A stretch of DNA of 32,000 bases. Origin: Chloroflexota bacterium. Its GTDB lineage: Bacteria > Chloroflexota > UBA11872 > VXOZ01. The notes beneath the pieces are model-generated. The model saw only the letters and a program-made list of their open reading frames with translations, did not search any database and was not told where the DNA came from. Of the stretch, positions 927 through 27,923 are shown piece by piece. Position numbers and translations under genes: made by a program. Position 1 is the stretch's first letter. Each line of letters opens with the position of its first letter. The stretch covers positions 3,039,504 through 3,071,503 of the forward strand of contig OZ244922.1 in the NCBI GenBank assembly GCA_965221905.1, given 5' to 3'.

Positions 927-1884
927 CGGCGCTCTCTTGCTTCAAATCGCTATCCACCATCATCTTAATGAGACCTGGAAAGTCTACGGTTGGCATCCAA
1001 CCCAGCTTCTCTTTTGCTTTCGAGTTGTCGGCGATCAAGAGGTTGACTTCTGCCGGGCGGAGGAACCGCGGGTCTTTGCCCACAAATTCCTGCCAGTCCA
1101 AGCCAACGTGATCGAATGCCACCGCGCACATCTCCTGGATCGAGTGCGTTTCGCCGGTGCCGACCACATAGTCGTCAGGCTCGTCCTGTTGCAGCATCAG
1201 GTGCATCGCCTGCACGTAATCACCGGCGTATCCCCAATCGCGCTTCGGCGACAGATCGCCCATTAGAAGGCTATCCTGCTTGCCAAGCTTGATGCGCGCT
1301 GCCGCGTTTGTCGTCTTGCGCGTTACAAATTCCAGGCCGCGGCGCGGCGATTCATGATTGAAGAGAATCCCTGAGCAAGCAAACATGTCGTAGCTCTCGC
1401 GGTAGTTCACCGTAGTGTAGTGCCCGTACGCCTTGGCCACGCCGTAAGGGCTGCGGGGATGAAAAGGCGTCGCCTCGCTCTGCGGCATTTCGCGCACCTT
1501 GCCAAACACTTCACTGCTCGACGCTTGGTAGAAACGGATGTCCCGGTTTACCATGCGGATAGCTTCCAACAGTCGAATGACTCCCAATCCCGTAATCTCA
1601 CTCGTGAGCACCGGCTGGCGCCACGACAATGGCACGAAGCTGATCGCACCCAGGTTGTAAACCTCATCCGGTTGCGCGCTCTCCACGGCGGCGATGAGTG
1701 AACTCTGGTCTAAGAGGTCTCCTTCAATGAGTTCCAGATCGGGGACGAGCCGCTGTACGGCCTCCGCTTTGGGGTTGTTCTGGCCCCGAATGAGGCCGTA
1801 TACGCTATACCCCAAGCCGATAAGATACTCGGCAAGATAGGTGCCGTCCTGCCCGGTGATTCCAGTAATTAGTGCTGTTTTCAC
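910..1884 (-). CDS. gmd: GDP-mannose 4,6-dehydratase
   Basis: Full-length match to the Gmd family: [18 protein letters not shown] Rossmann motif, YGVAKAY (YxxxK), [11 protein letters not shown] and [10 protein letters not shown]. The likely start is the GTG at 1884, with GGGGGA 7 nt upstream. The ORF extends to 1929. Confidence 0.95.
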
Positions 1885-2458
1885 ACGCGATCCCCCACAA
1901 GCGACTGGTGACAAAACCGTAGGGCACACACAAGTTTCAAAAGCTCAATTCGTGTTTCTCAGTGAAGAGCCCGCCGCTATGCACAAGCCCCTCCACGCTT
2001 TGGCCTTGCCTCGGACCCGAATTCTACAGCGCACAGCATCGCGAGTAGAGAGAGAAGGGAGGCCGAGCGAACGACACCGCTAGCACCCCAGCGCACAAAC
2101 GAATGCACCTGCTTGCGCCCACCTATCCGGCCAACAGGCGCGGCTGGAAGCCCCTGGAGGTCGACTCTTCAAGACTACAATCATGCTATATATTCTAATG
2201 CTATCATAGGAGCGAAGACATGCGCATTGGGCCCACCACGTGCGGCAATCAGGGCGAAGGCGCCGCTGTGTAGTGCGCAATTAATTGCTGGAGTGTAAGC
2301 TGTGTCATCGCGAAGGTACGGCCGCATTGCTTAGACTGAATGGATTTGTGCCGCCATGCTAGCGTCCAGCCAACACAGAATTCGATTGTTTCGCTGACCA
2401 ACGCAAGAATGTCCGGCAAGTCACGTGCCTGCCGCTGGAAGCCCCCAGGGAGAAGAGA

Positions 2459-3265: not shown

Positions 3266-4254
3266 ATGCCTTACGTAGACGATGCTCTTCTCTTGCCCCT
3301 CGGCACCAGCCTCCTGCTCTTGCTTTGGCTCTCTTTCTGCGGCGCCGTCCTCGTCCGCTTCTGCTGCTCTATTCGCAGTTGGACGCTGCTGCCTCCCCTC
3401 GGCCTCGCTGCCGGTTGCGCTATCTTCCTCGTCTGCGCCAATCTCCTCGGCAAGGTCGGCGCTCTACCTGAGGGTTCCGGAATCGCCGTCCTTGTCGGCA
3501 CAGTCGGCACTGTGCCTCTGGCCTTCGGCGGCGCCTTCCTCTTGCTCAGCGCCCTCGGCATCTTCGCCTCTTTCCAATTACGGCCACACTCCTGGCAGCT
3601 ACCCTCCCGTCGAACGCTCCTCGCAGTCTGCGGCTATTCCCTCTTAGCTCTCGTGCTCGCCTACGTCTGTCTCGCCATTCGCAACCAGTCCTACTTCTAT
3701 GACTTCCCTACCCACTTGGCATTCGCGACTACCATCGCACGCGACAACCTGCCCGTGCGCAACCCCTACTCTCCGGTCTCCCCCTCCGGCTACCACTACG
3801 GCGCCGCTCTCCTCGTCGCTGCCCTCTCCCGCGCCGCCGGCCTGCCCGCTGTTACCGGTTATCAACTCCTCGCTGCTTTGCAAGGCGCAGCACTTCTCCT
3901 GCTCGTCTTCGCCTTGGGCCGCGAGGCCGGTAAACTCTTCCTCTGGGGCCTTGCCTGCCTCCTCGCCGCTCTCTCCATGGGAAGCTTGGTGCTCTGGCGG
4001 CCTTTCGCCGCGTTACCTCCTGCTCTCTCTCATTTGCTTGGCGGCAATCTGTCGCTCGATGCCCTCCTCCAGTTCCCCAGCCTCCGCCAATATATCGAAC
4101 TCGTCTATCCCATCGTCTCTTTCTCTTCCGACCTCCACTGGCTCTTGATCTATCCCCATCGACTCGCGGCCTTCTTCACTGTCGCCGCGTTGGCCGTGTT
4201 GCTTGTCGGACCAGGGCGCCGACGTTGGGGCCACACCACTATGGCCTTATCTAT
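3266..4254 (+). repeat. 989-bp direct repeat, copy 1 (100% identical to 6633-7621)
   Basis: Checked base by base over 3266-3650 and 4201-4254. In between, identity is supported by identical translations in the coding frame and in five overlapping alternative-frame ORFs on both strands. Confidence 0.9.
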
Positions 4255-6626: not shown

Positions 6627-9600
6627 ATGCCCATGCCTTACGTAGACGATGCTCTTCTCTTGCCCCTCGGCACCAGCCTCCTGCTCTTGCTTTGGCTCTC
6701 TTTCTGCGGCGCCGTCCTCGTCCGCTTCTGCTGCTCTATTCGCAGTTGGACGCTGCTGCCTCCCCTCGGCCTCGCTGCCGGTTGCGCTATCTTCCTCGTC
6801 TGCGCCAATCTCCTCGGCAAGGTCGGCGCTCTACCTGAGGGTTCCGGAATCGCCGTCCTTGTCGGCACAGTCGGCACTGTGCCTCTGGCCTTCGGCGGCG
6901 CCTTCCTCTTGCTCAGCGCCCTCGGCATCTTCGCCTCTTTCCAATTACGGCCACACTCCTGGCAGCTACCCTCCCGTCGAACGCTCCTCGCAGTCTGCGG
7001 CTATTCCCTCTTAGCTCTCGTGCTCGCCTACGTCTGTCTCGCCATTCGCAACCAGTCCTACTTCTATGACTTCCCTACCCACTTGGCATTCGCGACTACC
7101 ATCGCACGCGACAACCTGCCCGTGCGCAACCCCTACTCTCCGGTCTCCCCCTCCGGCTACCACTACGGCGCCGCTCTCCTCGTCGCTGCCCTCTCCCGCG
7201 CCGCCGGCCTGCCCGCTGTTACCGGTTATCAACTCCTCGCTGCTTTGCAAGGCGCAGCACTTCTCCTGCTCGTCTTCGCCTTGGGCCGCGAGGCCGGTAA
7301 ACTCTTCCTCTGGGGCCTTGCCTGCCTCCTCGCCGCTCTCTCCATGGGAAGCTTGGTGCTCTGGCGGCCTTTCGCCGCGTTACCTCCTGCTCTCTCTCAT
7401 TTGCTTGGCGGCAATCTGTCGCTCGATGCCCTCCTCCAGTTCCCCAGCCTCCGCCAATATATCGAACTCGTCTATCCCATCGTCTCTTTCTCTTCCGACC
7501 TCCACTGGCTCTTGATCTATCCCCATCGACTCGCGGCCTTCTTCACTGTCGCCGCGTTGGCCGTGTTGCTTGTCGGACCAGGGCGCCGACGTTGGGGCCA
7601 CACCACTATGGCCTTATCTATAGCCATCGCCGCTGCCATCGCTCTCTACGATGAAACTATGCTCCCCCTTGCTCTCATGGCCCTCGCTTGGCCTCTGCTC
7701 TCCCTCCGCCGTAATCCCCAACGCCTCGCCATTTGGCTCGGCGGCGCCCTGGCCGCTATCGGCCTCATTGCACTTCAAGGCGGCTCTGTCTCATACGCAC
7801 TGTTTGGCAATGCCGGCACCGGCTCCCTCTTATCTCTGCGATCTGTGCCGGACGCCGCCCGCTCTGTCACCTTGACCAGAGTGCTCCCGGAAGGGTGGCT
7901 CTGGATACTCCCTCCCCTACCCCTCGCCGCCTCCGCCCTCATCTTCACCTGGAAACGCTGGTGGCTGGGGCTCATGCTCTGCGGCTTCGGCTTCGCAGGC
8001 TACCTCGGCTTTCATATTGTGGATTACCAGGGAGCCATCGGTTCTGGCCAATGGGCCCGTGTCGTGAACCTCTCATTTCTCACACTCGCTTTGGTAACGC
8101 CCTTGGCGGTTGCCCGTCTTCTCCGTGATGCACAGCCGTGGCGCACAGCGCTTGTCGCCTTCTTACTGATGCCTGTATTCCTACCCACGCTTACCCAACC
8201 AGCGGCCAGCATCATCTCCGATCTCCGTAAGGAAGTTACGTTTCACCACCCGGAGTCTCCAGGGCTGGTTTACACCCCCCAGATCACCGATCCATGGGTC
8301 ACGCGCCGGTTATTCGAGAATCGAGATGTCTACAGGGATATCGCCCAAGTGCTGCCCGATGACAGCGTCGTGCTTACTCAACATCCCGTCTCATTCGTCA
8401 TCGCAACAGGCCTACCTGCCGCCTATGGATCTATCGACGGCATTACCCTATACGCTTCCCACATCTACTTTCCCGGCCCAGCCTTCTACGATGCTTTCTG
8501 GCGACTTGATCCCGCAGCGTGGAGCTCATTAGGCGCTACTGCGGTTCTCTATCACCAAAGAATGTACTACTCACTGCCACAATCGGCGCGGGAACTCTTA
8601 GAAACCGATGGCTGGTTTTTACGCCGCAACGACGACCGCCAACTTCTGCTCTTCACTCCTACCGAGGCATTCCTCCAGTATGGCCCAACCCCTGCGAACA
8701 CTCTATCCGCATTGATGACGTTACTACCGTCTACAGATACGCTCTATCTGTCGACTGACTTACCCTTTGGGATGGGACAAGCACTTGTGCGGAAACTTAA
8801 GGATCGCCCAACGGTTGGCCTCGGGCCAGAAAATAGAGTACACCAGTGGATAACGGTAAATAGACCTGTATGGTTAACAGAAGCTGAGGCGACATGGCAC
8901 GTGCGCAAGGATTCGGAGGTGCGGCTATCCGGAACACTCCCTGAGGCCGCGTTGTGGCATTGGCGCGCGCCAAGCGAAAGTGTAGGGGTCTACCCAAACG
9001 ACACGATACCGGCCTTTTCTCCCAGACTGCTTGCGGCCGGCCAGTCCTTACGCTTGCACGCAAGCCGCCAAGACCTTGTTTTGGAAGATGGGCCCACCGT
9101 CACCTCGCCTGTGCAGTTCCGCTCACTCTCTCTCGTACTTGCCGGGCATCCTGGTAGCGTTGTCCAAGTCTGTGGCCCGACAGGATGTGCGCAACGAGAC
9201 TTGGGTGGTGGGACGTGGGTCATTGGGCTGCCACTGAATGCTGATCTTTCGCAGTTCACGCTCTCCGCAGTACAAGGCGAGGCTTTCATCGCTGGTACGC
9301 TCGGCTTCAGTGAACACCTCACTGCGGTTCGCGCACCCGGTGTCGTCCTTCGATCTCGGCAAACTGGCAACACTATTGAAGTGGATGCCAATTACTTTAA
9401 TCGCCAAGGGTGGACCCAAGGGGATGGCGTAGCGTGGCACCTTGTCAAAGCAAAAACCAGTAAGGGCGAGGGCGGACTGTGGTGGCCCAGCCAGCTCATC
9501 ATCCATGGTGAGCGCGGTGACGTTCGCCTTACCCTGGACCCGTCCGGCACATTCGCCGAATATAACTTCACGACTCCCCCGTCGCTAAATCAAGTCGAAG

Positions 9601-9785
9601 CGTTGACTGATGCAGAATATCAGCTATACCTCGCCTTCACCATTGATCCCTTTGGGGTTGTAGATCGGGTACCTGCAGCGCGGTTTCTTGTTAGTGAGGG
9701 TTCTATCGTAGCGTTCACCCCGCTACCGCAAATAGCGCTCCTGAGCTATGGTACGGAACACGTCGAGCCATTTATTTTAGAGTAG
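6627..9785 (+). CDS. Large polytopic membrane protein, paralog B of 3266-6424
   Basis: 1052-aa ORF. The homologous start is the second ATG at 6633, where nucleotide identity with paralog A begins. Same TM architecture as A; the C-terminal half is clearly homologous but much more diverged, by eye. Confidence 0.85.
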   Translation: MPMPYVDDALLLPLGTSLLLLLWLSFCGAVLVRFCCSIRSWTLLPPLGLAAGCAIFLVCANLLGKVGALPEGSGIAVLVGTVGTVPLAFGGAFLLLSALGIFASFQLRPHSWQLPSRRTLLAVCGYSLLALVLAYVCLAIRNQSYFYDFPTHLAFATTIARDNLPVRNPYSPVSPSGYHYGAALLVAALSRAAGLPAVTGYQLLAALQGAALLLLVFALGREAGKLFLWGLACLLAALSMGSLVLWRPFAALPPALSHLLGGNLSLDALLQFPSLRQYIELVYPIVSFSSDLHWLLIYPHRLAAFFTVAALAVLLVGPGRRRWGHTTMALSIAIAAAIALYDETMLPLALMALAWPLLSLRRNPQRLAIWLGGALAAIGLIALQGGSVSYALFGNAGTGSLLSLRSVPDAARSVTLTRVLPEGWLWILPPLPLAASALIFTWKRWWLGLMLCGFGFAGYLGFHIVDYQGAIGSGQWARVVNLSFLTLALVTPLAVARLLRDAQPWRTALVAFLLMPVFLPTLTQPAASIISDLRKEVTFHHPESPGLVYTPQITDPWVTRRLFENRDVYRDIAQVLPDDSVVLTQHPVSFVIATGLPAAYGSIDGITLYASHIYFPGPAFYDAFWRLDPAAWSSLGATAVLYHQRMYYSLPQSARELLETDGWFLRRNDDRQLLLFTPTEAFLQYGPTPANTLSALMTLLPSTDTLYLSTDLPFGMGQALVRKLKDRPTVGLGPENRVHQWITVNRPVWLTEAEATWHVRKDSEVRLSGTLPEAALWHWRAPSESVGVYPNDTIPAFSPRLLAAGQSLRLHASRQDLVLEDGPTVTSPVQFRSLSLVLAGHPGSVVQVCGPTGCAQRDLGGGTWVIGLPLNADLSQFTLSAVQGEAFIAGTLGFSEHLTAVRAPGVVLRSRQTGNTIEVDANYFNRQGWTQGDGVAWHLVKAKTSKGEGGLWWPSQLIIHGERGDVRLTLDPSGTFAEYNFTTPPSLNQVEALTDAEYQLYLAFTIDPFGVVDRVPAARFLVSEGSIVAFTPLPQIALLSYGTEHVEPFILE
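6633..7621 (+). repeat. 989-bp direct repeat, copy 2
   Basis: Identical to 3266-4254 at a 3367-bp offset. Confidence 0.9.
7893..8173 (+). repeat. 281-bp near-identical block, copy 2
   Basis: Matches 4526-4806 with one observed mismatch. Confidence 0.8.
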
Positions 9786-10087: not shown

Positions 10088-10582
10088 GTGACACCCTCAC
10101 AACTCATGGGCCTGCTCCACCGGCACATCGCGGCGGGCCTTGCCTCCCGGAATGAGACACTCGCGTGCGTTGAAATCGGAAGCGGCGGGCAGGTCTCCTC
10201 CTTCCTTACGTCAGAGCCGGGAAGTTCAGCCTTCTTCGCCGGCGCACTGATACTTACTGCGGATGCTTCCGTTTGGCCCCGGTCAATCATGGGCCGCTGC
10301 GGCTGGCGACATGACCCGTTGGAGAGTCTCGATCGCTTGTGCGGGCTTGCTGCAATTGCACAAAGTGAGTTTGGCGCGGATTGGGGACTTGCGGTGGTTT
10401 GCAAGGCTGCTGCAGCCCGGCACCCCGCGCATTTCGCGCTGCGTTCCCCAAGTGGCAATGCAACCCTTGAGACCGCGTTACTTTCGGAGGAAGTGCTGCA
10501 ATTTGGCGGGGCACAACTGGTACATTACGTCCTACAGCACGTGGCAGAGCGCCTAACAGACTACCGTGAGGATCCACCATGA
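10088..10582 (+). CDS. CinA C-terminal-domain (PncC-like) family protein, divergent
   Basis: ETLACVEIGSGGQVSSFLTSEPGSSAFFAGALIL corresponds to the CinA/PncC signature TLATAESCTGG....LT..PGSS..F.GG.V.Y, but SCTGG is replaced by IGSGG. GTG start; an ATG at 10106 is an alternative. Confidence 0.7.
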   Translation: MTPSQLMGLLHRHIAAGLASRNETLACVEIGSGGQVSSFLTSEPGSSAFFAGALILTADASVWPRSIMGRCGWRHDPLESLDRLCGLAAIAQSEFGADWGLAVVCKAAAARHPAHFALRSPSGNATLETALLSEEVLQFGGAQLVHYVLQHVAERLTDYREDPP

Positions 10583-14075: not shown

Positions 14076-14135
14076 AGAACCGCTGCCTCGCAAAAGCTTC
14101 AAGCCTATATCTACTAATTCCGTTGCGCCGCTAGT

Positions 14136-14165
14136 TTGACACGCTCATTTGCCGCCTGTTATCAT
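14136..14165 (+). promoter_or_regulatory. Sigma70-like promoter upstream of the aroF leader
   Basis: TTGACA (14136-14141) - 18 nt - TATCAT (14160-14165). Pattern match only. Confidence 0.35.
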
Positions 14166-14220
14166 GCCTCAGTATTTGCAGCGTGCCATGCACGCTTGGC
14201 AGTGCAACAAAGGAATTAGT

Positions 14221-14280
14221 GTGGTAGTCGCAGCTCTCAACTATTATTATCTGTTTATTGAGCCGGAGGGTCCGGCTTAA
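14221..14280 (+). CDS. Candidate leader peptide MVVAALNYYYLFIEPEGPA (19 aa) with a Tyr-Tyr-Tyr-Leu-Phe run
   Basis: GTG at 14221 with AAAGGA 6 nt upstream. TAT TAT TAT CTG TTT at 14242-14256 and TAA at 14278-14280. In-frame ATGs at 14188 and 14164 would give 30- and 38-aa versions. The ORF is too short to appear in the ORF track. Confidence 0.35.
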   Translation: MVVAALNYYYLFIEPEGPA

Positions 14281-14337
14281 GCAGATTTGCTTTGTCCCAG
14301 CGGACAATACGAGAGCAGACGACACCCTCCGGCGATA

Positions 14338-14370
14338 GCAGAAAGTGAAAGACTTTCTGCTTTTTCTTTT
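14338..14370 (+). terminator. Canonical intrinsic terminator inside the aroF 5' leader (attenuator candidate)
   Basis: gcagaaagt (14338-14346) - gaaag - actttctgc (14352-14360), followed by tttttctttt (14361-14370). The T-tract is on the plus strand only. It lies 145 nt upstream of the aroF ATG. Confidence 0.6.
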
Positions 14371-14515
14371 ATAGAAGGGAGTAGGTGGCAGCATAGATTC
14401 GCTAGAGCGACAACCACCGCGGAACCAGTTGTCAAAGACGTTGTGCATATAAGGCAGCCTCACACAACGAAGGCGCAATGCAGCAACTATGCAAAGGAAT
14501 GAAAGGTAGAGCGAC

Positions 14516-15565
14516 ATGATTGTGATAATGCGACCCGAAGCAACACCGGAGCAGATCGCTGCCGTACGCCAGCGCATTGAAGACGAGGGCTTGGAGTCGA
14601 CCGTCAGCCAAGGTGTTAATAAGGCAGTGATCGGCCTCATCGGCAAACGTCCTCCCGGCATGTTGGAGCGCGTACAGGTGCTGCCGGGAGTGGAGATGGT
14701 CATTCCGGTTGACAAGCCGTACAAGTTCGCAGCCCGGGGTGAGGGCGGCGATGATACGCAAATTCGCGTTGGCAACGTGACCATCGGCAGCAATGAAATT
14801 GCCGTGATTGGCGGTCCGTGCAGCGTGGAGAGTGAGGAGCAAATCGTCGCTACGGCAGAGGCCGTGAAGGAAGCGGGCGGGCACATCCTGCGGGGCGGCG
14901 CCTTCAAGCCGCGCTCCTCTCCATACAGCTTCCAAGGCAAGGGCAGAGAGGGCCTGGAGCTACTCCGCACTGCCGCAAATGCCACCGGTCTGCCCCTCAT
15001 TACGGAGGTCATGGAACCCGGTAGAGTGCCGCTGGTAGCCGAATACGTCGATATCCTGCAGATCGGCACCCGCAACATGCAAAACTTCCCCCTGCTGCAA
15101 GCTGTCGGCAACACCGATAAACCGGTGCTGCTCAAACGCGGCATGGCGGCAACCATCGAAGACTTGCTGATGTCCGCGGAATACATTATGGCCGCCGGTA
15201 ATATGCGCGTGATCCTCTGCGAGCGGGGCATTCGCACCTTTGAAACGGCCACCCGCAACACACTAGACCTGAGTGCCATACCGGTGATAAAAGAACAATC
15301 TCATCTGCCGGTGATCGTCGATCCCAGTCATGCCACGGGTATGTGGGAGCTGGTAAAGCCGATGTCGCTAGCTGCTGTCGCCGCCGGAGCTGACGGTGTG
15401 ATGATTGAGGTGCACCCACATCCGGAGCTGGCGCTTTCAGACGGGCCCCAGAGCGTCACACCGGCACGTTTCTTCGACATCATGGATGCCATTCGCAAAG
15501 TGGCGGCCTCGGTAGGTCGGGAAGTACCCGCCGCCACAGCCGAGATGGAAGCCGCCACCCCGTAA
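14516..15565 (+). CDS. aroF: 3-deoxy-7-phosphoheptulonate (DAHP) synthase, type I-beta, with an N-terminal ferredoxin-like regulatory domain
   Basis: The catalytic core [43 protein letters not shown] and VDPSH matches KDO8PS-like type I-beta DAHPS. An extra domain of about 75 aa ([26 protein letters not shown]...) resembles the one in the Thermotoga-type enzyme. Confidence 0.95.
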
Positions 15566-17793: not shown

Positions 17794-18540
17794 ATGCCCA
17801 GGCAAGAGAGCATCTCTGTCTTTTTTCCCGCCTACAACGATGAGCACACGATTGGTACCCTCGTAGAGCAGTCCATTTCCGTGATTGAACGGCTGGGATT
17901 CACTGACTATGAGGTCATCGCCATCAATGACGGCAGCGAAGACGGCACAGCGGCAGTGCTGGCGCGGTTGGAAAGCGATCTACCGCAATTTCGCGTGATT
18001 ACGCACCCAAAGAATCGCGGCTATGGCGGGGCGCTCCGCAGCGGCTTCAGCGCAGCCTGTAAAGACTTGGTCTTCTACACTGACGGCGACGCCCAGTATG
18101 ACGTGGAAGAGCTACCATTGCTCTTGGAAAAACTGGCGGATGCCGTTGACGTTGTGAACGGCTACAAAATTTCACGGAAAGATTTCTGGGTTCGAGATAT
18201 TGTTGGAAAGCTGTATCGCAGCACTATGCGTTTGTTCTTCAAGACACCGATTCAAGACATTGACTGTGATTTCCGCCTCATCCGGCGTCGGGCATTGGAC
18301 TCAATTCACCTTACTATGAATAGTGGCGCCATTTGCTTAGAGCTCGTCGCAGAGCTAGCTGCTAGTGGCTCCCGCTTCGCCGAGGTAGGCGTGACACATC
18401 TTCCCCGTCAATATGGCCGCTCACAGTTCTTTCGTCCGCGCCACATCATTCAGACGTTGGCGGATGATTTTCGCTTTTGGTTTCGCTTGCGCCAGGCGCG
18501 CCGATCCTACATCGCGCGGGAAGAGCAAGATACCCCCTAG
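17794..18540 (+). CDS. Family-2 glycosyltransferase, polyprenyl-phosphate sugar synthase type (DPM1/GtrB/ArnC-like)
   Basis: ISVFFPAYNDE, AINDGSEDGT, NRGYGGALRSG and YTDGDAQYD (DxD) fit the GT-A fold of the Dpm1/GtrB subgroup. No C-terminal TM domain. Confidence 0.9.
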   Translation: MPRQESISVFFPAYNDEHTIGTLVEQSISVIERLGFTDYEVIAINDGSEDGTAAVLARLESDLPQFRVITHPKNRGYGGALRSGFSAACKDLVFYTDGDAQYDVEELPLLLEKLADAVDVVNGYKISRKDFWVRDIVGKLYRSTMRLFFKTPIQDIDCDFRLIRRRALDSIHLTMNSGAICLELVAELAASGSRFAEVGVTHLPRQYGRSQFFRPRHIIQTLADDFRFWFRLRQARRSYIAREEQDTP

Positions 18541-18862
18541 GCACGCTTTCAACCTCGCCTGTGCTCTCCAATTGCGGCTAAGACTCTCTCCCAGTTCGCC
18601 CTAGAACCATGCTGCCCTAAGCCCAATCTAAACTGAAGGCAACCTGTCAAGAGACATGGACTGCGATCGGGGATTTTGGCAATCCTTGCCACGTATTTCC
18701 CAAACCAGCGAGAGTTTCCAGGCCAAATTCTAGTACATACGAAGTCGTTCGCAGCCGAGCGCCTTGGCTGAGAATACCACCACTGGCCGACTCCTTCTAA
18801 GCCAGGCACCGTCTACATAGCGTGTTTGCTACAGTGCGCGATTGCCTGCTACTATCGCTTGT

Positions 18863-21139
18863 ATGAGGCGCTTTCACTCTACTCATGCGACACCGCTCGC
18901 AGGATTCCATCCCTCCCTGGAAGACGCACCGAAGCACACACTGCGGCTGCTTGGCGTAATATTCCTCTTCTTTTTCTTGGTGTACGTCTTGACTGCAGGC
19001 GGTCATGAGTATAGCCCTGACGGACGCTTTGCGTACAACATGGGGCAAAGTCTCATATTGGACCCCGATCACGCCTACTTAAGGCAAGAATATCGCGGTC
19101 TGGCGTGGTGGGGAATTGGGTTACCCTTGCTCTTCCAACCTACCTTGGTCTTGGGCGGCATGATCAGCCCCTTGCTGCCGCAGAAGGACACTTTTGAGCA
19201 CGAGGGGCGCACGTATGTGCTCGGAGACTATCCTGTACTCGCATTTAGAGGCACTCCCAATAGGGTGGAGACGTTCTACATTCCTATTAAGGACGTGCGC
19301 GCCAGAGGTCTTGTTATTTTTTCCTACCTGGCGTCGTCCTTAGAGATCAGTGAAGGTACACGAGTCGCCACAGTCACGTTAGATACCGTTCCGACAGGCA
19401 GATTCTTTGGAGAGATGATAGCTGGGCGAGACACGGCGGAGTGGGCATACGACCGCCCGGACGTGCGCGGTAAGGTGGCACACGGCAAGGCAAGTGCCGC
19501 GGCGAGCCGTATTGGGATCCCAAGTTCCAGCATTTACGTTTCCGAACTGCTCTTTCCGCAGAGCGTGACCGTAAAGAGCGTGACCATCCAGTATCTGGCT
19601 AACGAAGGCAACTTGCACATTTCATCCCTCAACCTCATCGATGCCGAAACTGACCAGCCGATAATGATCGGCGCCCGAGGTAGGGTCTGGTCCGAGCGGG
19701 AAAACAGCGGCTTCTTCACGCGCTTGTTTGCTCTATTCACCAACGCCTGGGTAACGGCCCTGAACGCCGTACTGTTATTTCTCATTGCGCGTCGACTTGG
19801 GTATCACGGCCACGTTGCACTTTCCTTGACATTCCTATTTGGTTTTGCAACGCTTGCGTGGCCGTACGCAAAATACGACTTCGCTGAACCAGGCGTTACG
19901 CTAGCGCTTCTTGGCACAGTCTACTTCCTGCTGCGCGGTCTCCAAGACCAGCAGTTAGGCTGGCTGCTTGTTGGTGGATTTACAATACTAGGCGGCATCG
20001 CCATAAAATACGTAACGGCCATGAATCTTGCTATACTGGCAGCTATCCCGGCACTTGTCACTTTGCAAAGCGCCAACCGGTCTCTGCGAACCCTTGCCCG
20101 GGCCCTCGCACGCACCATCGTGTTTTTGGCCCCAGCAGGCGTACTCGGTTCGGCAGCACTTGCCGTACTCGTATTCGTTCTTAACATACGGCCTCCTGTG
20201 CTGACGAATTTCGCTGACAGGTTTGCTGCCTGGCTTGACCTCCCAATCTGGATCGGCCTCTACGGCAACCTGCTGAGTCCGGGAAAGAGCGTCTTCCTCT
20301 ATGCGCCGCCCCTGATCCTGGCCCTATTCGGCAGCCTACCCTTTATTTCACGGCACAAGTGGTGGGCGCTGCCCTTTATTGGAATACCGCTGCTTTATTT
20401 GCTGGTCTATAGCGCCAAGGGTGTCTGGTACGGAGGCAGTAGCTGGGGGCCGCGCTATCTGGTTCCGGCGGTACCCCTCTTCCTCGTCATGGCCTCTCCT
20501 ATAATCGAGAAAGCCATCTTCGACAATGGCATCAGGGAGCTTCGGGCAACTCTAGTGCTAGGTGCTACCGGAATCGGCATCCAGATTCTTGCAATTGCCA
20601 ATCACTTCGACTGGTACTTCGGCCTGTTGCGCTCCCAGATCCTCCCGCAAGTACCGGAAAGCGGTGCTTTTCTCGCCGGTCGAGTGGGTCAAGCCTATTT
20701 TGCCCACCCTACGAACAACCCTTGGGATCAAGAGAATGTCCTATATCTTTTCGCGGCTCCGTTTTCACCCATCTTTGCCCATGTCTGGATGCTGGCAGCA
20801 GACTTCGCAAAACTCTTCTTGCCGACACGACCCGACCTCCTCCTCGGTATACTCGGTCACCCGCCCTGGTCTATTCTCGGCGTTGCCATATGGCCGCAGA
20901 ATCCAGAATACCTCCTGGGCCTTGACTTTTGGTCTATGATTCTCTGGCGGGAATATTCCAATCACATGTTCTTTCTGGCGATCGTGCTGATCGTTGTCTT
21001 GGCCGTAGAAGCGGCAATCCTCTATTGCTGGTCCTGGCTGTGCCGGAAATTTGAACTGCCCCTGCGTCTCTATTGGGGCGGGATTGCCGGCTTGGCGGCG
21101 TTTTTCATTCTCTTCGACATGGCTCACATCCTGCAGTAG
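18863..21139 (+). CDS. Polytopic membrane protein, probable GT-C-fold (ArnT/PMT_2-like) glycosyltransferase with a loop insertion of about 175 aa
   Basis: About 13 TM segments. The first-loop acidic motif GGHEYSPDGRFAYNMGQSL (18998-19054) is analogous to the D/E-x-x-Y/H loop of ArnT/PMT enzymes. A beta-rich insertion is encoded at about 19184-19712. GPRYLVP motif. The ORF opens at a TTG at 18842; the first ATG is at 18863. Confidence 0.7.
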   Translation: MRRFHSTHATPLAGFHPSLEDAPKHTLRLLGVIFLFFFLVYVLTAGGHEYSPDGRFAYNMGQSLILDPDHAYLRQEYRGLAWWGIGLPLLFQPTLVLGGMISPLLPQKDTFEHEGRTYVLGDYPVLAFRGTPNRVETFYIPIKDVRARGLVIFSYLASSLEISEGTRVATVTLDTVPTGRFFGEMIAGRDTAEWAYDRPDVRGKVAHGKASAAASRIGIPSSSIYVSELLFPQSVTVKSVTIQYLANEGNLHISSLNLIDAETDQPIMIGARGRVWSERENSGFFTRLFALFTNAWVTALNAVLLFLIARRLGYHGHVALSLTFLFGFATLAWPYAKYDFAEPGVTLALLGTVYFLLRGLQDQQLGWLLVGGFTILGGIAIKYVTAMNLAILAAIPALVTLQSANRSLRTLARALARTIVFLAPAGVLGSAALAVLVFVLNIRPPVLTNFADRFAAWLDLPIWIGLYGNLLSPGKSVFLYAPPLILALFGSLPFISRHKWWALPFIGIPLLYLLVYSAKGVWYGGSSWGPRYLVPAVPLFLVMASPIIEKAIFDNGIRELRATLVLGATGIGIQILAIANHFDWYFGLLRSQILPQVPESGAFLAGRVGQAYFAHPTNNPWDQENVLYLFAAPFSPIFAHVWMLAADFAKLFLPTRPDLLLGILGHPPWSILGVAIWPQNPEYLLGLDFWSMILWREYSNHMFFLAIVLIVVLAVEAAILYCWSWLCRKFELPLRLYWGGIAGLAAFFILFDMAHILQ

Positions 21140-22309: not shown

Positions 22310-25300
22310 CTACCTCCCCGCATCACTCATTCCTACAGTTCGCGACTGCGTTCGGGTAGTCGCATAAATGAGAGCGCACAACGCTGCAGACAACCAGAAC
22401 CAACTTGCCAAGTCCGGCAGGAAATAGTAATTATCCAACAGCCCATGGCTCACTGCGGCGAGTTGGCTCCCAGCGAGACCAACGCCCATGGCGCGAGCCG
22501 CTCCTTCGTCGCTGCTATAGACTATGCGGTGTGTGAACAGGAAAAATCGCACGAGATAACCGACTATAAAAACAAGACCCACTATTCCAAGGCGTAGCCA
22601 AAAGTCGAGGAAGAGGTTATGGGGGTGCGAGAGGTTTGGTTCACGCCAGGCTGCCGGGTTCAAGTACTGCGCATGGACATAGAGGAAGTTGTCCAGTCCG
22701 ACGCCCGTAATTGGGTAATCTGCGATCATTCGGAGTGAAGACTGCCCTTGAATTAGCCGCGTATGCGTGGTCGTGCCCGGCTCCAGACTCAGCAGCGAGC
22801 GCACGCGCTCCGGGCCGAAGGAGACGCCTCCAGCTACCAGCAGCACTGTCACCAGCACAACGCCCCCCACGATACGAACCCGTTGTCTGCCAGCCGGAAT
22901 GAGCACCCAAATGATGAATAGCAGCAATACGAACCCGGCTATCCAGCCTGCGCGCGAAAAGCTGCCCAGTAGCGTGAGCGCCAGGATACCTGCAATCGGC
23001 CACGCCACCCGGGAGGGCCACAGCTTGAATATGCCTGCAGCGACCACAAAGGGCAGTGCGCGCTCCACTATCATTGCCAGATGATTTGGCGAGGGATAGA
23101 AACCCGTAAGCCGCATCACTCCTTCCGCCCTTACCACGGAGCTGGGAGCGAGGATCGGCTCTGCGAGTGCTGCGACGGCCGCAATTACGGCCCCCGCCAC
23201 AAATGCCTGTATCAACCACCAGGCCTGTTGGCGATTTTCCAAAAGCCAGCTCGCCACCAGAAACAAGAGAACCGGCACGATGATCGTCTGCCGTAGCTCA
23301 CGCAGGCTAAAGACCGCGTAATGCGAAAACAGAAGGGAAACCGCCCCGATCCCGATCAGACCGATTGCCCACCATGAGAACTCGCGCCGCGGGAACGGTA
23401 AGCGCTGTTGAATGTACGCGTGCGCGATGAGCGATCCCGTAAGCAGCACCGCCAAAGTCTCGCTAACCGGCAGTGTCAGACGGCCAGCGGCGGGTATCAG
23501 CACGGTAAAGGGCAGTGTTAGCGCTAGCACGAACAGCAGCGCACGAGGCCAAACGAGCGCACCGAGGGCGAGCAATGCCACAACCAGAATCTGTGGCCCC
23601 GTTCCCGGTGCCATCCAGAGCACCACGGACATCGCGAGGAGCAACGCAAACCTAGCCCGTTCAAATCGCCATACGCCGCTCGCGGTCCATCCCACGGCCC
23701 TCTGGAAAATCCGGTGCGCCCAGCGCCGCTGCCGCAGCCATCCGGTCAGGACCCAGCCCAACGCAGCAAAGAAACCCACGTAGAGTCCGCCCAGAGTGAC
23801 ATAGGGCCACAGCGGTCGTTCGCGAACCACTACCACCGCATCGATGTCTATGCCGGAGGCGCTAGACTGCGGGCTGTGCTCGCCTTTCACCACAACTTCG
23901 ACGTCGTGCACGCGGTCCGGGAGTCGATCTGCCAGCAACACCTCTTCCTGCCATCGGTCCTCGGGAGCATAGAGATCAAGAATGGCCTGTCCACCCGCGT
24001 CTTTGTCCAACCGGTGTGCCAGCGACTGTGTGCCGTTGATGCGAACAAGCGCGAAGCCTTTGTCCGGCCCTTTGTTCACCACCAGCGAAACCGCAGTACC
24101 CCGAAAGTGAAAGCGCAGGCGGGCGCCCGCCAGCGGACTGCCCCGCGCCTGACCCAACGAATAGCGTTCGTGCTCGATGTCAATCCATTCGCTCTCCCAA
24201 TTGAGCGCCGGATGCGTTTCCTGATGGTAGCCGGGACCCAGGACGGGTGGCGCGCGCATCAACTCCTGCATTGCCGTAAGCACCGGCCGCGGCGCAAAGT
24301 TCGCATCCACAATGCCGAAGTACTGTGTGGGGTCATCGGGGTCGGCTTGGGCCCAATAGAAGTGCCAGAGGTTAATCATCGGCATCCACGGCCACTCAGC
24401 CTGTGCGCGCTGCATCCCCTCTACGGTATAGCGCGCCTGTGTCTCCTCCGACACATTGCCCCACGGCGAAGGCTTGCCCTGCCAGTCCGGCGGCAGCGCA
24501 ACCCACCCGTACTCACCGGCCCAGACGGGTTTTGCCGCGTCGCCATTTCTCACCATAACTTCACGAAAAAGAACCGCCCGCGAGAGATTGGTGCGGTGCG
24601 GTGCGACGTAACGGTCGTCCGGGGCATGCCACAACCCATAGGCTGCGCTACTCGCCACGTCGAAGTAGGGTGCACCGCCATGCTCATACATCCCCTGCAG
24701 GAAGATAAGTTCGCTGAGGTTCTTTGGGCCGGTCTCAATGGTAGGCGCGAGTACGGCGGCGACAATAATCGCCTCCGGATTCGCCTCCCGAATCCGCTGC
24801 GAAGCAACTTTCAGCATCTCAACGTATGCCGCCGGATCCGGGTTGTGCGGCCACCATTCTCCATAGAGATTGGGCTCGTTCCAGACCTGAAAGATCTGCA
24901 CGTCCCCGCGATACCGCTGCGCGAACGCATACGCGAAGTCGCCAAAGTCCTCGAGTCGCTCCGGCGGCCCTTGGTTACGCCCATCATCCGGCGGTTGGCG
25001 ATTAGGATACGCCCAGGGCGGCGGCCGTTCGAGGCGGGCGATGATGGTTAGGTTGTGTTGCTTGGCCAGTGCTACCAGCCGGTCGTACTTCTTCCAACTG
25101 CTTTCCTGCAGAAGGTCGTTCCAGTACCTGCCCTTCAGCGGGCGCTCGATGTCTTCCCAGGGAAAGACCTGCCGAATGTAGGTAAAGCCAGCTTCCTCCA
25201 AGAGCGCCATGCCGCGCTCCACTCGTTCCCAGTCCGGCTCCTGGTCGAAGCGCGTGTTGATGCCGTAGCGGTATACGGCGGCATTCTGGATCGGGTAAAT

Positions 25301-25471
25301 CAAATCGCGTCCGTAGGCAACACCGGTTTCAAACCAAAAGCGGAAACCCACCAGTGCAAGCGTCGCCCCGACAAGCAAGATGAGGTAGCCAATTAAAAAG
25401 TAGAATCGCTTCATATTTGGATAGTCTGCATCTGAATGCCCGCGCTCACGCGAGGCAACGGCACGCGGCAT
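22310..25471 (-). CDS. Fusion protein: signal-anchor + clan GH-A glycoside hydrolase + beta-sandwich module + O-antigen ligase/polymerase (Wzy_C-type) membrane domain
   Basis: Residues 21-45 form a TM anchor. A (beta/alpha)8-type GH carries VWNEPN (Glu codon at 24875-24877) and AGEYGW (Glu codon at 24512-24514). A module of about 140 aa (about 23822-24244) follows. Residues 555-1053 have at least 10 TM segments with SFSRAGW and GVGLDNF...HPHNLFLDFWLRLGIVG, which are typical of the WaaL/Wzy family. An alternative start is the ATG at 25414 (MKRFYF...). Confidence 0.85.
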   Translation of the reverse strand: MPRAVASRERGHSDADYPNMKRFYFLIGYLILLVGATLALVGFRFWFETGVAYGRDLIYPIQNAAVYRYGINTRFDQEPDWERVERGMALLEEAGFTYIRQVFPWEDIERPLKGRYWNDLLQESSWKKYDRLVALAKQHNLTIIARLERPPPWAYPNRQPPDDGRNQGPPERLEDFGDFAYAFAQRYRGDVQIFQVWNEPNLYGEWWPHNPDPAAYVEMLKVASQRIREANPEAIIVAAVLAPTIETGPKNLSELIFLQGMYEHGGAPYFDVASSAAYGLWHAPDDRYVAPHRTNLSRAVLFREVMVRNGDAAKPVWAGEYGWVALPPDWQGKPSPWGNVSEETQARYTVEGMQRAQAEWPWMPMINLWHFYWAQADPDDPTQYFGIVDANFAPRPVLTAMQELMRAPPVLGPGYHQETHPALNWESEWIDIEHERYSLGQARGSPLAGARLRFHFRGTAVSLVVNKGPDKGFALVRINGTQSLAHRLDKDAGGQAILDLYAPEDRWQEEVLLADRLPDRVHDVEVVVKGEHSPQSSASGIDIDAVVVVRERPLWPYVTLGGLYVGFFAALGWVLTGWLRQRRWAHRIFQRAVGWTASGVWRFERARFALLLAMSVVLWMAPGTGPQILVVALLALGALVWPRALLFVLALTLPFTVLIPAAGRLTLPVSETLAVLLTGSLIAHAYIQQRLPFPRREFSWWAIGLIGIGAVSLLFSHYAVFSLRELRQTIIVPVLLFLVASWLLENRQQAWWLIQAFVAGAVIAAVAALAEPILAPSSVVRAEGVMRLTGFYPSPNHLAMIVERALPFVVAAGIFKLWPSRVAWPIAGILALTLLGSFSRAGWIAGFVLLLFIIWVLIPAGRQRVRIVGGVVLVTVLLVAGGVSFGPERVRSLLSLEPGTTTHTRLIQGQSSLRMIADYPITGVGLDNFLYVHAQYLNPAAWREPNLSHPHNLFLDFWLRLGIVGLVFIVGYLVRFFLFTHRIVYSSDEGAARAMGVGLAGSQLAAVSHGLLDNYYFLPDLASWFWLSAALCALIYATTRTQSRTVGMSDAGR

Positions 25472-25557: not shown

Positions 25558-26523
25558 TCAACTCGATACGTCCGCAAGCATCTCACGTTTGTACCACTCC
25601 ACGAAGCGCCCGACGCCCTCACTAAACGTGATCTTAGGTGCGAATCCAAGCAACTGCTCTGCCCGGTGAATGTCGGCATACGTCCGTGGCACGTCGCCCG
25701 GCTGCGGCGGGAGCATGATTCGCTCCGCCGTCACACCCAGCACCTTCTCAACTGTAGCGATCATGTCCCGTAAGAGCACGGGATGATTGCCGCCTAGATT
25801 GATCACCTTGTGAGGGAATACGTTGTGCAGCGCCGCCACGACGCCATCGATAATGTCGTCAACGTACGTATAGTCCCGCCCGCTGGAACCGTCGCCATAG
25901 AATGGGATTGGCTCATTCTGCAACAAGAGACGGACAAAGGTGTAGACTGCCAAATCTGGGCGCTGTCGCGGCCCGTGCACATTGAAGAACCGCAGACACG
26001 TCATTGGCAGGTCATAGTTATGTGCGTAGGCGTAGCAGTAAAGCTCCGCGGCGCGCTTGCCGGCTGCATACGGCGAGATGGTGGTACTGATTGGATCGTC
26101 TTCGGAGAACGGCACCTTGGCATTAAGACCGTACACCGATGACGACGATCCCAGAATGAACTGCTCCACGCTGAATTCCCGCGCTTGTTCCAGCACATTG
26201 ATCGTACCTTCGCCAAGCACCCGAGCATATGCTGCCGGTTCCTTAAGCGCCAGGCGCGCGTTGGCGCGCGCCGCAAGATGGACTACGCGCTCAGGTCTTG
26301 CTTCCTTGAAGACGTGGTGCAGTCCGCAGCTATCTAAAATATCCGCATCAAACAGGTGAAATCGAGGGTGGTTGTTGACCGCGGCAAGATTCCGACGCTT
26401 GCGCCGAGGATCATAGAACGAATCGAAGTTGTCCACCACGGAAACATCGTGATCTTCATGCAAGAGCCGTTCCACGAGATGCGAGCCAATGAAACCGGCC
26501 CCGCCGGTAACGAGAATCTTCAT
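25558..26523 (-). CDS. NAD-dependent nucleotide-sugar epimerase/dehydratase (extended SDR; UDP-glucuronate/UDP-glucose 4-epimerase-like)
   Basis: MKILVTGGAGFIGSHLV, SSSSVYG, YAAGKRAAE (YxxxK), RFFNVHGPRQRPD and RDYTYVDD. Confidence 0.9.
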   Translation of the reverse strand: MKILVTGGAGFIGSHLVERLLHEDHDVSVVDNFDSFYDPRRKRRNLAAVNNHPRFHLFDADILDSCGLHHVFKEARPERVVHLAARANARLALKEPAAYARVLGEGTINVLEQAREFSVEQFILGSSSSVYGLNAKVPFSEDDPISTTISPYAAGKRAAELYCYAYAHNYDLPMTCLRFFNVHGPRQRPDLAVYTFVRLLLQNEPIPFYGDGSSGRDYTYVDDIIDGVVAALHNVFPHKVINLGGNHPVLLRDMIATVEKVLGVTAERIMLPPQPGDVPRTYADIHRAEQLLGFAPKITFSEGVGRFVEWYKREMLADVSS

Positions 26524-26780
26524 GTTGCTTGGCTAGACTCCTGCATGACTCTACAATTTGCGCTTATTATAGCGAGGTTTGTTACAAGAGACTCACGCCG
26601 GGGCTCAGCCATGACAGCGCAATGCTTGCATCACCATCTAGAAAATGATTTTCCGTGACCACGCAAAGCTCTTGCGTGGAGGGATTGACAGAAGACCGCA
26701 AGGAGAGACCGGAGCAAACAGTCGTCCCTAAGCTCTGCCGGGCGCCCGTCACGAAGAAGACGTTCGTTCCGGAGAGGATG

Positions 26781-27923
26781 TCACACCGCAGTTGCAAGAG
26801 ATTCCTGCACCGGGCTGAGAGCATGTTCAATGCGCCCGCCGCCAATCACCTCGTCGTCCTGATAGAACACCGCAGCTTGACCGGGCGCAACCGCGCGTAT
26901 TGGCTGCGCGAACGCAACCTTCGCTTCCCCGTTCTCCGTCGGCTCCACGGTTGCTTCCACTTCCGCCATGCGGTAGCGGGTGCGCACGCTCACGCGCATG
27001 GGCTCTCGCGGAGGAGTATCCGCCACCCAGTGCACGTCAACGGCCTGCAAGGCATGCGCATAGAGGTCTGCCTCTTCACCGACGAATACGGTGTTTGCTT
27101 CCGGGTCCAATGCAATAACGTAAAGTGGACGCGGCCACGTCAAGCCCAGCCCTCGGCGCTGCCCAACCGTGTAGTTTACGATACCGCCATGCTCACCCAG
27201 CACCTGTCCGTCCTTGTAGCAAATGGGGCCGGAGCGCGCGATACCGGGCTGCCAAGACTCCAAAAACTCGCGATAATTGTCACTGGTCACAAAGCAAATC
27301 TCGAAACTATCCGGCTTATCCGCCACGTGGAGGCCGTATCGCCTTGCCAAATCTCGTGTCTCAGACTTCGATTGGCCCCCCATTGGAAACAGAGTCTGCG
27401 CCAGTTGGTGCTGACCCAGCATATAGAGCACGTAGGACTGGTCTTTCTGGGGATCGAGCGCGCGAAACAGGCGATAGCTCCCCGATTCCGCATCCTGCTG
27501 GATGCGCGCGTAGTGGCCGGTAGCGAGGTAGTCGGCGTCAAGCTCCTGCGCCCGCTTGAGAAAGGCCGCGAACTTCACGAATTGGTTGCAATCGACGCAC
27601 GGGTTCGGTGTGCGACCTGCGGCGTACGAGGCGACAAATCGCGCCATCACCTCCCGCGCAAATATCTCGCGAAAGTTCAGCGAGTAGTGGGGAATGCCGA
27701 TGCGGTCCGCTACCCTCTGGGCGTCGTGAGTCGCGCTCATCGAGCAGCATGCATGCAGGCGGGTATCTACCATGCCTTTCTGCCAGACATTGAGGGTAAT
27801 GCCGATCACCTCATGTCCCTGGTCGGCAAGCATGGCAGCCACCACAGAGGAATCAACGCCGCCGGACATCGCGACCACGATGCGCAGCGGTTTCGTCGTT
27901 CGTGAAAATGCATTAGCTAACAT
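26781..27923 (-). CDS. mnmA: tRNA-specific 2-thiouridylase
   Basis: PP-loop VAMSGGVDSSV, CCS..D, NPCVDCN, ATGHYA and DQSY motifs, and a C-terminal barrel domain. Full length. Confidence 0.95.
   Translation of the reverse strand: MLANAFSRTTKPLRIVVAMSGGVDSSVVAAMLADQGHEVIGITLNVWQKGMVDTRLHACCSMSATHDAQRVADRIGIPHYSLNFREIFAREVMARFVASYAAGRTPNPCVDCNQFVKFAAFLKRAQELDADYLATGHYARIQQDAESGSYRLFRALDPQKDQSYVLYMLGQHQLAQTLFPMGGQSKSETRDLARRYGLHVADKPDSFEICFVTSDNYREFLESWQPGIARSGPICYKDGQVLGEHGGIVNYTVGQRRGLGLTWPRPLYVIALDPEANTVFVGEEADLYAHALQAVDVHWVADTPPREPMRVSVRTRYRMAEVEATVEPTENGEAKVAFAQPIRAVAPGQAAVFYQDDEVIGGGRIEHALSPVQESLATAV

Follow-up and report, generated by a model that had tools for sequence, protein, structure and literature searches.

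A PslG-like glycosidase joined to a WaaL-fold Wzy_C transferase in a single doubly anchored membrane protein of Chloroflexota

Nearly every exopolysaccharide gene cluster encodes a degrader of its own product, and the reason is debated: it could be a failsafe, a means of setting chain length, a release factor or a part of the synthetic machine. This question is raised directly by one gene in a 32,000-nucleotide stretch of DNA from a Chloroflexota bacterium (GenBank assembly GCA_965221905.1, contig OZ244922.1, positions 3,039,504 to 3,071,503; hereafter the window). Its product of 1053 amino acids combines an extracytoplasmic glycoside hydrolase (GH) with a polytopic membrane domain of the Wzy_C type (Table 1). 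A first-pass annotation, made from the sequence alone, had not recognised this architecture as a characterised one; in agreement, a literature search for it returned irrelevant papers only, and the fusion is apparently unstudied. We propose, with moderate confidence, that it is an anciently fused envelope-glycan assembly protein, in which transfer by Wzy_C and binding or cutting by the PslG-like part would act on the same polysaccharide.

The order of parts, obtained from hydropathy and AlphaFold2 (AF2) modelling, was a basic tail, a transmembrane helix (TM1), a (beta/alpha)8 barrel, a beta-sandwich, a second transmembrane helix (TM2), an Arg-rich linker and the Wzy_C domain. The full-length AF2 model, made from 56 homologues, had a mean predicted local distance difference test (pLDDT) value of 85.5 and a predicted template modelling score (pTM) of 0.79, and contained a beta/alpha barrel between residues 69 and 413, an all-beta module between residues 414 and 549, and helices only thereafter. 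The sequence motifs on which the first-pass annotation was built had been placed correctly along the chain, namely VWNEPN (residues 196-201), AGEYGW (318-323), SFSRAGW (837-843), GVGLDNF (923-929), HPHNLF (949-954) and DFWLRLG (956-962). An alternative start codon (M20, nt 25414) would give a protein of 1034 amino acids, and since the homologues with 79% identity have exactly this length, M20 may be the genuine start. The architecture is unaltered whichever start is used.

Table 1. Features of the fusion gene and its upstream neighbour, in window coordinates
Feature	Coordinates	Strand	Remarks
Whole gene, PslG-like::Wzy_C fusion	22310..25471	(-)	1053 aa, one uninterrupted open reading frame
N-terminal cytoplasmic tail, residues 1-23	25403..25471	(-)	5 Arg/Lys, positive-inside rule
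TM1, residues 24-43, in to out	25343..25402	(-)	Kyte-Doolittle peak 2.43
Extracytoplasmic (beta/alpha)8 GH domain, clan GH-A, residues 55-413	24233..25309	(-)	nearest GH39 PslG
VWNEPN; E199 predicted acid/base	24869..24886	(-)	aligned with PslG E165 (HMMER)
AGEYGW; E320 predicted nucleophile	24503..24520	(-)	aligned with PslG E276 (HMMER)
Beta-sandwich module, like a carbohydrate-binding module, residues 414-549	23825..24232	(-)	all-beta in AF2 model
TM2, residues 555-580, out to in	23732..23809	(-)	hydropathy and AF2 helix 555-580
Arg-rich cytoplasmic linker, residues 581-600	23672..23731	(-)	sequence; low pLDDT 593-601
WaaL-fold (Wzy_C, GT-C_B) polytopic membrane glycan transferase, residues 601-1053	22313..23671	(-)	Pfam, profile, fold
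SFSRAGW; R840, candidate pyrophosphate-binding Arg	22943..22963	(-)	aligned with CmWaaL R191
Large extracytoplasmic catalytic loop, residues 886-952	22616..22816	(-)	R905, GVGLDNF, H949-P-H951-N
SDR nucleotide-sugar epimerase/dehydratase	25558..26523	(-)	upstream of fusion; Pfam Epimerase E=1.7e-56

Because scans of the N-terminal half gave no match above threshold in either Pfam or NCBIfam, its identity as a GH was taken from sequence, profile and fold searches against the PDB. In all three, the best match was PslG, the GH39 enzyme of Pseudomonas aeruginosa (4ZN2, 5BX9). The phmmer search matched PslG at E=2.6e-9 with both catalytic motifs aligned, and the family profile matched it at E=5.9e-26, followed by 12 GH39 xylosidases before any other GH family. 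Foldseek aligned the AF2 model with PslG (4zn2_A, a 413-residue target) at E=5.8e-18 with a TM-score of 0.67 over 473 columns; ranks 1-11 were PslG and other GH39 enzymes, the ranking was mixed from rank 12, and the top 50 were GH-A barrels throughout (GH39, GH30, GH53, GH164 and GH2).

The features of clan GH-A were present in the model, with strands and helices alternating between residues 69 and 413 (pLDDT mostly >85), N198-E199-P200 as the predicted strand 4 acid/base motif and E320 as the predicted strand 7 nucleophile. The catalytic residues of PslG are E165 and E276, and E-to-Q mutation abolishes PslG function (PMC9075953). Both predicted catalytic Glu residues fell on these two positions, in line with the GH-A hydrolase with intact motifs that had been proposed for this protein and with the alignment by which it was to be checked. 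By sequence and by structure the nearest group was the PslG subgroup of GH39, with alignments covering both barrel and sandwich. Since the Foldseek alignment spans the entire PslG, barrel and sandwich form one whole PslG-like unit; the first-pass annotation had described a beta-sandwich module of about 140 amino acids, which the model reproduces, but had treated it separately from the hydrolase. On the evidence of the model, the sandwich corresponds to the C-terminal one found in PslG and in other GH39 enzymes; it also had a weak Pfam match to CE2_N (E=0.034). PslG and the fusion thus share an N-terminal transmembrane anchor, an extracytoplasmic barrel with a sandwich, and aligned catalytic Glu residues. 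They differ in that identity is about 20%, and PslG stands alone, singly anchored, in a diderm proteobacterium, whereas the Chloroflexota protein has TM2 and a covalently attached Wzy_C domain.

The C-terminal half was recognised by Pfam as Wzy_C (PF04932; residues 828-969, E=1.3e-21, 77.4 bits against a cut-off of 31.7), so that the Pfam check proposed for the two domains returned the membrane half and no GH family above threshold. A separate AF2 model of residues 555-1053 (pLDDT 85.6, pTM 0.86) had a sole significant Foldseek match, WaaL (7tpg_B; E=2.2e-8, TM-score 0.69, 426 columns), with the SEDS polymerases FtsW and RodA next in rank. Consistent with this fold match, a profile of 50 C-terminal domains matched WaaL (7tpg) alone in the PDB (E=6.5e-14), and the Wzy_C/WaaL-type assignment of the first-pass annotation therefore stands. 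The profile alignment placed R840, R905 and H949/H951 on R191, R265 and H311/H313 of the Cupriavidus metallidurans enzyme (CmWaaL). The roles given to these residues are those described for the family (PMC12800693) and, reportedly, in work on the WaaL structure. R905 and H951 were conserved in 104/104 fusion representatives, and position 840 was R or K in 80/104. Likewise, E671, R727, R787, R804, R905, D927, H951, H1009 and D1013 were kept in at least 100 of the 104. The active site of the Wzy_C family is defined by Arg (pyrophosphate) and His (catalytic) positions (PMC12800693). Judged from the sequences, the constant and essential activity of the fusion is most likely that of the WaaL-fold transferase.

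The fusion shares with WaaL (7TPG/7TPJ) its fold, the Arg residues and an H-x-H-N catalytic loop, but identity is 18% and the fusion has about 600 additional N-terminal residues. The RfaL equivalog model NF012031 gave 40.2 bits against a cut-off of 277, so by this model the domain is not WaaL sensu stricto. Chloroflexota are increasingly considered to have no outer membrane, according to a preprint (bioRxiv 10.1101/2025.08.19.671072), and the host is probably monoderm. Because the phylum is reported there as probably monoderm, the lipid A-core acceptor of WaaL is probably absent from the host, and a strict O-antigen (lipid A-core) ligase is unlikely.

The same consideration bears on another reading of this half, in which Wzy_C would be a protein O-oligosaccharyltransferase (O-OTase) like PglL, PglS or WsaB and would modify proteins of the S-layer or elsewhere on the surface, with the GH trimming or editing the glycan. 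The Wzy_C family includes such enzymes, which have in common with the fusion a Wzy_C/RfaL core and the Arg/His active site of WaaL (PMC12800693), and the family profile did match an 'Oligosaccharyltransferase' chain weakly (9rmk_A, E=3.5e-4). If the phylum lacks an outer membrane, as the preprint has it, there would be no lipid A-core to accept the glycan. However, WaaL was by far the stronger match in both profile and fold searches, the additional C-terminal periplasmic domain of PglS-type enzymes was absent, and no conserved candidate acceptor protein adjoined the gene. We know of no O-OTase with a fused glycosidase, and we regard this function as improbable.

The two halves are connected by a helix that the first-pass annotation had missed; it had given the protein a single N-terminal anchor, which is present as TM1 (AF2 helix 18-47, pLDDT 89-94, following a tail with pLDDT <50 over residues 1-16), but TM2 lies between the ectodomain and Wzy_C. 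WaaL-type domains start on the cytoplasmic side of the membrane. TM2 matters for this reason, as it returns the chain to the cytoplasm, where the Arg-rich run of the linker extends to residue 607 (8 Arg within residues 580-607). With TM1 running outward and TM2 inward, either end of the ectodomain is fastened to the membrane. The WaaL fold puts the loop at residues 886-952 outside. From the positive-inside rule and the WaaL homology, we infer a topology in which the GH and Wzy_C active sites would both face outward, which supports the earlier claim that the two modules share one face of the membrane. The pTM of the full-length model exceeds expectation for two freely hinged halves of about 500 residues and suggests that they are packed in a defined arrangement.

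The fusion was then followed across databases. A protein search gave 129 relatives, of which 120 were listed as 90%-identity clusters; among these 120, both halves were present in 67, with identities as low as about 28%, so that chance resemblance is far from sufficient as an explanation. In public annotation they are named solely 'O-antigen ligase family protein', in entries from metagenome-assembled genomes of Chloroflexi or Anaerolineae. A genome scan with one genome per species gave at least 572 relatives, and the best 80 loci were examined. All 80 were from Chloroflexota (Anaerolineae, Chloroflexia, Thermomicrobiales, Dehalococcoidales, Thermoflexus and Ca. Chloroploca). As a survey of fused against split genes, which had been suggested with the first-pass annotation, these loci comprised 46 fusions in a single open reading frame (ORF), 6 adjacent split pairs and 28 loci with the GH-sandwich gene only. 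When 1.84 billion representatives were scanned exhaustively with HMMER, 705 matched at E<=1e-30, and both halves were found in 106 of the 147 best new 50%-identity representatives. The fusion is real and widespread in Chloroflexota, and among the named matches it appears to be confined to this phylum.

This conclusion would fall if a frameshift introduced in sequencing or assembly had joined two genes artificially, or if the halves were functionally unrelated and no more than neighbours. A few near-identical genomes do carry the gene in a broken form, and genuine split pairs occur. Against an artefact, the single ORF recurred in the 46 loci from independent assemblies and in the 106 distant representatives, the junction is a conserved transmembrane helix with a basic linker and not a read-through spacer, and the two halves co-diverge. 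Artificial joining was rejected on the basis of the recurrence across independent assemblies, which also disposes of the frameshift that the first-pass annotation had named as a danger to its claim; we give such an origin virtually no credence. In at least one genome of 90% identity or more, the gene was called as two products of 411 and 622 amino acids (P0130 and P0132) on one 20,369-bp contig. These broken calls probably reflect a long-read frameshift or assembly error, and automated annotation therefore sometimes hides the architecture.

The split pairs and stand-alone genes indicate how the fusion is put together. Wherever the boundary of a split pair was readable, the GH gene ended just past TM2 with its basic tail; the split was clean in 4 of the 6 pairs (L053, L055, L006 and L074). 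The junctions between the genes (TGAtcGTG for L053 and L055, an overlapping ATGA for L074) are of a kind typical of translational coupling and would be consistent with it. The split pairs formed their own clade, and their Wzy_C genes were nearest to the Wzy_C halves of the fusions. Stand-alone GH homologues of about 590 amino acids (proteins P0054-P0114) nearly all had an N-terminal transmembrane helix and a C-terminal one with a basic tail; in this double anchoring, the stand-alone Chloroflexota proteins differ from singly anchored PslG. Because the stand-alone GH already ends in a helix and tail, fusion requires no new helix, just the loss of a stop codon. Among 56 fusions, the pairwise identities of the GH halves and of the Wzy halves were correlated (Spearman 0.88), and the halves have therefore been inherited together. 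Taken together, the fusion, the coupled split pairs and the co-divergence argue, in the manner of a Rosetta stone, for action of the hydrolase at the transferase itself, and the fusion may be read as genetic evidence that both activities work as one machine.

Several observations weigh against our reading of the protein as a joint transfer and glycosidase device. The Pfam GH39 model PF01229 gave only E=0.066 and 12.4 bits against a gathering cut-off of 26, and many homologues bear precomputed matches to PF00150 (GH5); the domain is for these reasons filed as 'GH39-like, clan GH-A' and not as certified GH39. The stand-alone doubly anchored GH genes usually had no recognisable Wzy_C gene within 10 kb, so the GH cassette is able to work without an adjacent detectable Wzy_C partner. 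No Wzx flippase, polysaccharide co-polymerase (PCP) or priming phosphoglycosyltransferase gene was found in the window or in the recurrent operon described below; such genes could sit elsewhere in the genome. Finally, at least one catalytic Glu was lost in 52/98 fusion representatives, as against 1/42 stand-alone relatives.

The last point was examined by aligning the representatives to the fusion alignment, in which the flanking W...GW motif was in register in 93/98. The canonical dyad (N-E plus nucleophile E) was present in 41/42 stand-alone GH relatives and in 24/98 fusions. A D-E pair with the nucleophile retained was found in 21/98 fusions and D-Q, in which the acid/base is gone, in 11/98, while the nucleophile was substituted by A, Q, N, H, D or other residues in about 40/98. 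In a set of 56 aligned fusions, the acid/base Glu was present in 54 and the nucleophile Glu in 47. Residues R100, W105, W153, W197, P200, N201, W206, D271, Y278, R298, W317, W323, W360 and W362 were equally conserved in 'dead' and 'live' fusions. With a Glu missing from 52 of the 98, cutting cannot be what the fusion serves for in every case, and the loss of Glu while the other GH residues checked are kept means that hydrolysis is dispensable once the domain is fused and the sugar-binding scaffold is not. Glycan binding is probably the constant role of the ectodomain, as far as sequence conservation can tell. Within the window's own clade (about 42 sequences, 36-97% identity), N-E-P and the nucleophile Glu were retained without exception, which argues for purifying selection on catalysis in that lineage. 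The 'glycan-cleaving' module of the first-pass annotation is thus not the conserved core of the fusion, but the description probably applies here, and the GH of the window's clade probably still cuts.

These data bear on two related alternatives. In one, the GH-like ectodomain would be a pure glycan-binding or positioning module (a co-polymerase, a ruler or an acceptor-recognition device), and the dyad would be an ancestral leftover or only marginally used. The loss of Glu residues specifically in fusions, the equal conservation of the other checked GH residues and the absence of any PCP/Wzz gene from the operons seen all speak for it, but the unbroken dyad of the window's clade argues against it, and for this protein we judge it unlikely. 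A wider version, to which we give somewhat more weight while still holding it doubtful, takes the ectodomain as a membrane-stapled chain-handling module that would keep a nascent or acceptor glycan positioned above the transferase site, as a Wzz/PCP replacement or for acceptor recognition, with hydrolysis ancestral and optional, retained by the clade of the window protein but gone from over half of the family. If true, this would be a distinct and compact Wzy-type route to glycans in bacteria that lack an outer membrane, and it would provide a natural series from active enzyme to pseudoenzyme within one architecture.

In a large sub-clade (proteins P0085-P0111; e.g. L048:3798-6959, L075:6588-9815 and L028:2689-5877), W-D-E-P-N replaces W-N-E-P-N and the nucleophile position is occupied by Asn, His, Ala or Gln. 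In other GH families, substrate-assisted catalysis on 2-acetamido sugars is marked by just such a D-E pair that lacks a nucleophile. By this analogy, the W-D-E-P-N members could be enzymes for N-acetylhexosamine polymers rather than dead ones.

The genomic neighbourhood was examined for partners. The SDR gene that had been noted upstream on the same strand was confirmed there, with a gap of 86 nt to the fusion. Its NCBIfam matches were to GalE, RmlB and TviC types, all below cut-off; an SDR homologue adjoined the fusion in 16-21 related loci, and the gene is a probable operon partner. The synteny of the window was shared by just one relative (L001, 79% identical), and the context was therefore taken from more distant loci. 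A recurrent operon of Anaerolineae had the order (PD40), methyltransferase, G5/DUF348 protein and fusion, followed by Macro, SDR, a second Wzy_C, GtrA/LPG_synthase_TM, GT4, thioesterase and MoxR-like AAA genes; a 4HBT domain was also among the recurrent neighbours.

The second, stand-alone Wzy_C protein (about 500 amino acids; e.g. L049:14623-16134) was encoded 2-3 genes downstream in 19 of the 52 loci with both halves (the 46 fusions and 6 split pairs). The profile of the second Wzy_C matched WaaL at 3e-11, compared with 6.5e-14 for the fused one, and WaaL was the sole match for each. The two are homologous end to end (hhalign 6e-41), and their similar strength against WaaL gives no discrimination between them. 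The presence of two Wzy_C proteins in a single operon is reminiscent of a polymerase accompanied by a ligase, and the second could be the polymerase or ligase partner of the fusion. In about 10 genomes (L002-L005, L007, L012, L014, L029, L034 and L057; e.g. L003:9914-11062), the fusion was immediately preceded, on its own strand, by a stand-alone GH-barrel paralogue of about 385 amino acids. This paralogue had no beta-sandwich, was 38-44% identical to the fused barrel and matched Pfam Cellulase at E=3e-6.

Retaining glycosidase mechanisms allow transglycosylation, and the GH might mainly graft the nascent chain onto wall polysaccharide, which would make the fusion a polymerise-and-crosslink machine. 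The retaining GH-A dyad is intact in the window protein, the double tether keeps the ectodomain at the interface of membrane and wall, and wall-associated G5/DUF348 proteins are frequent upstream neighbours. On the other side, no transglycosylase-specific feature was identified, PslG itself is a hydrolase, and the widespread loss of the nucleophile would abolish transglycosylation too. We consider this possibility remote, although not as far-fetched as an artefact of assembly.

The closest functional parallel is the Psl system. PslG takes part in making a biofilm polysaccharide of Pseudomonas by a Wzx/Wzy-type pathway, and synthesis depends on its attachment to the membrane as well as on its activity (PMC6813494, PMC9075953); the membrane-bound enzyme and its hydrolytic activity are part of the Psl machinery and needed for it (PMC6813494). 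PslJ is the Wzy polymerase and PslG a proposed failsafe (PMC13434223). The pair thus consists of a Wzy-type polymerase and a membrane-bound GH39 endoglycanase serving the same polymer in one machinery (PMC13434223, PMC6813494). The fusion resembles PslJ and PslG as one polypeptide, the likeness to PslJ being one of described role, and the split pairs at L053, L055 and L074 resemble an operon version. In Pseudomonas the two proteins are separate, and PslJ sits inside an octamer of the PCP protein PslE; it is this octamer that is proposed to shield the chain from PslG. Unlike the Psl system, the recurrent neighbourhoods of the fusion showed no PCP or OPX genes.

Partnerships of glycan cutters with polymerases are found more widely, as with MltG and SEDS/PBP enzymes, KORRIGAN and cellulose synthase, BcsZ, AlgL and PgaB. 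Such membrane-tethered cutters tune chain length, release or quality. These partners belong to enzyme families different from those of the fusion and act on different polymers, but the logic is alike. To our knowledge, none of these five is a GH39-type cutter fused to a WaaL-fold transferase.

For the envelope-glycan assembly protein that we favour, the following course of events may be envisaged. On the outer side of the cytoplasmic membrane, the Wzy_C domain would accept a glycan linked to polyprenyl diphosphate and pass it to an acceptor hydroxyl, either of the next lipid-linked repeat, as a Wzy-type polymerase, or of another envelope glycan, as a ligase. The PslG-like module, held above the outer face by its two transmembrane helices, would bind the same polysaccharide in its cleft; that the two sites act on one polymer is our inference. 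In the lineage of the window, the intact N-E...E dyad would allow endolytic cutting of the chain with retention, and the hydrolase of the window protein is presumably active. Cutting would then be a built-in trimming, length-limiting or release activity (a 'terminase' or failsafe), in keeping with the part ascribed to separate, membrane-bound PslG alongside PslJ in Pseudomonas.

Other genes of the window may also belong to envelope glycosylation. Two tandem paralogues of 1052 amino acids (3266-6424 and 6627-9785, both (+)) were 76% identical, with the first ~200 amino acids near-identical; each had about 11 transmembrane segments in the first ~530 amino acids, followed by a non-membrane domain of about 500. 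Pfam, NCBIfam and PDB searches gave no significant match for them, and only a sub-threshold one to DUF2298 (E=0.0056). They may be GT-C-like envelope glycosyltransferases that arose by recent duplication or were homogenised by gene conversion. A GT2 protein of 248 amino acids (17794-18540 (+)) was similar to polyprenyl-phosphate sugar synthases (ArnC, AglJ, PpgS and DPM, all below cut-off). It was followed by a protein of 765 amino acids with about 10 transmembrane segments (18842-21139 (+)), which had a faint match to 'LA_3751/LA_3752 putative glycosyltransferase' and nothing significant in PDB and Pfam searches. The two look like a lipid-phosphate-sugar synthase with a GT-C enzyme, a second extracytoplasmic glycosylation system near the fusion. 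A GDP-mannose 4,6-dehydratase gene (910-1929 (-); TIGR01472, 399.9 bits against a cut-off of 415) suggests a 6-deoxyhexose of the fucose, rhamnose or perosamine type in the local envelope glycan.

Some ORFs of the window call for caution. An ORF of 382 amino acids without family matches (14131-15279 (-)) lies antisense to the DAHP synthase gene (14516-15565 (+)), and two further ORFs, 23714-25051 (+) and 26655-27905 (+), lie opposite the fusion gene and mnmA, respectively. All three are most likely spurious shadow ORFs in GC-rich DNA. An ORF of 164 amino acids (10088-10582 (+)) matched a CinA domain over residues 11-56 alone and may be a truncated or divergent CinA-like gene.

In summary, both protein families were known already, as was their association as separate proteins in the Psl system. 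The novelty lies in their covalent joining with a double anchor, in how abundant the fusion is among Chloroflexota, in the existence of orthologous split pairs and in a decay of the hydrolase active site that is specific to fused proteins. At least 106 clusters at the 50% level and hundreds of genomes of different species make this a large family, in a phylum about whose envelope glycans next to nothing is known. The fusion offers a one-polypeptide system for structural study of polymer handling by a WaaL/Wzy-fold enzyme. It also constitutes a natural experiment, in that the catalytic Glu is kept in the stand-alone GH and often lost when the domain is fused, which points to selection for glycan binding. 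The fusion does not represent a new principle, but it gives a natural handle on why polysaccharide machines carry their own glycosidase.

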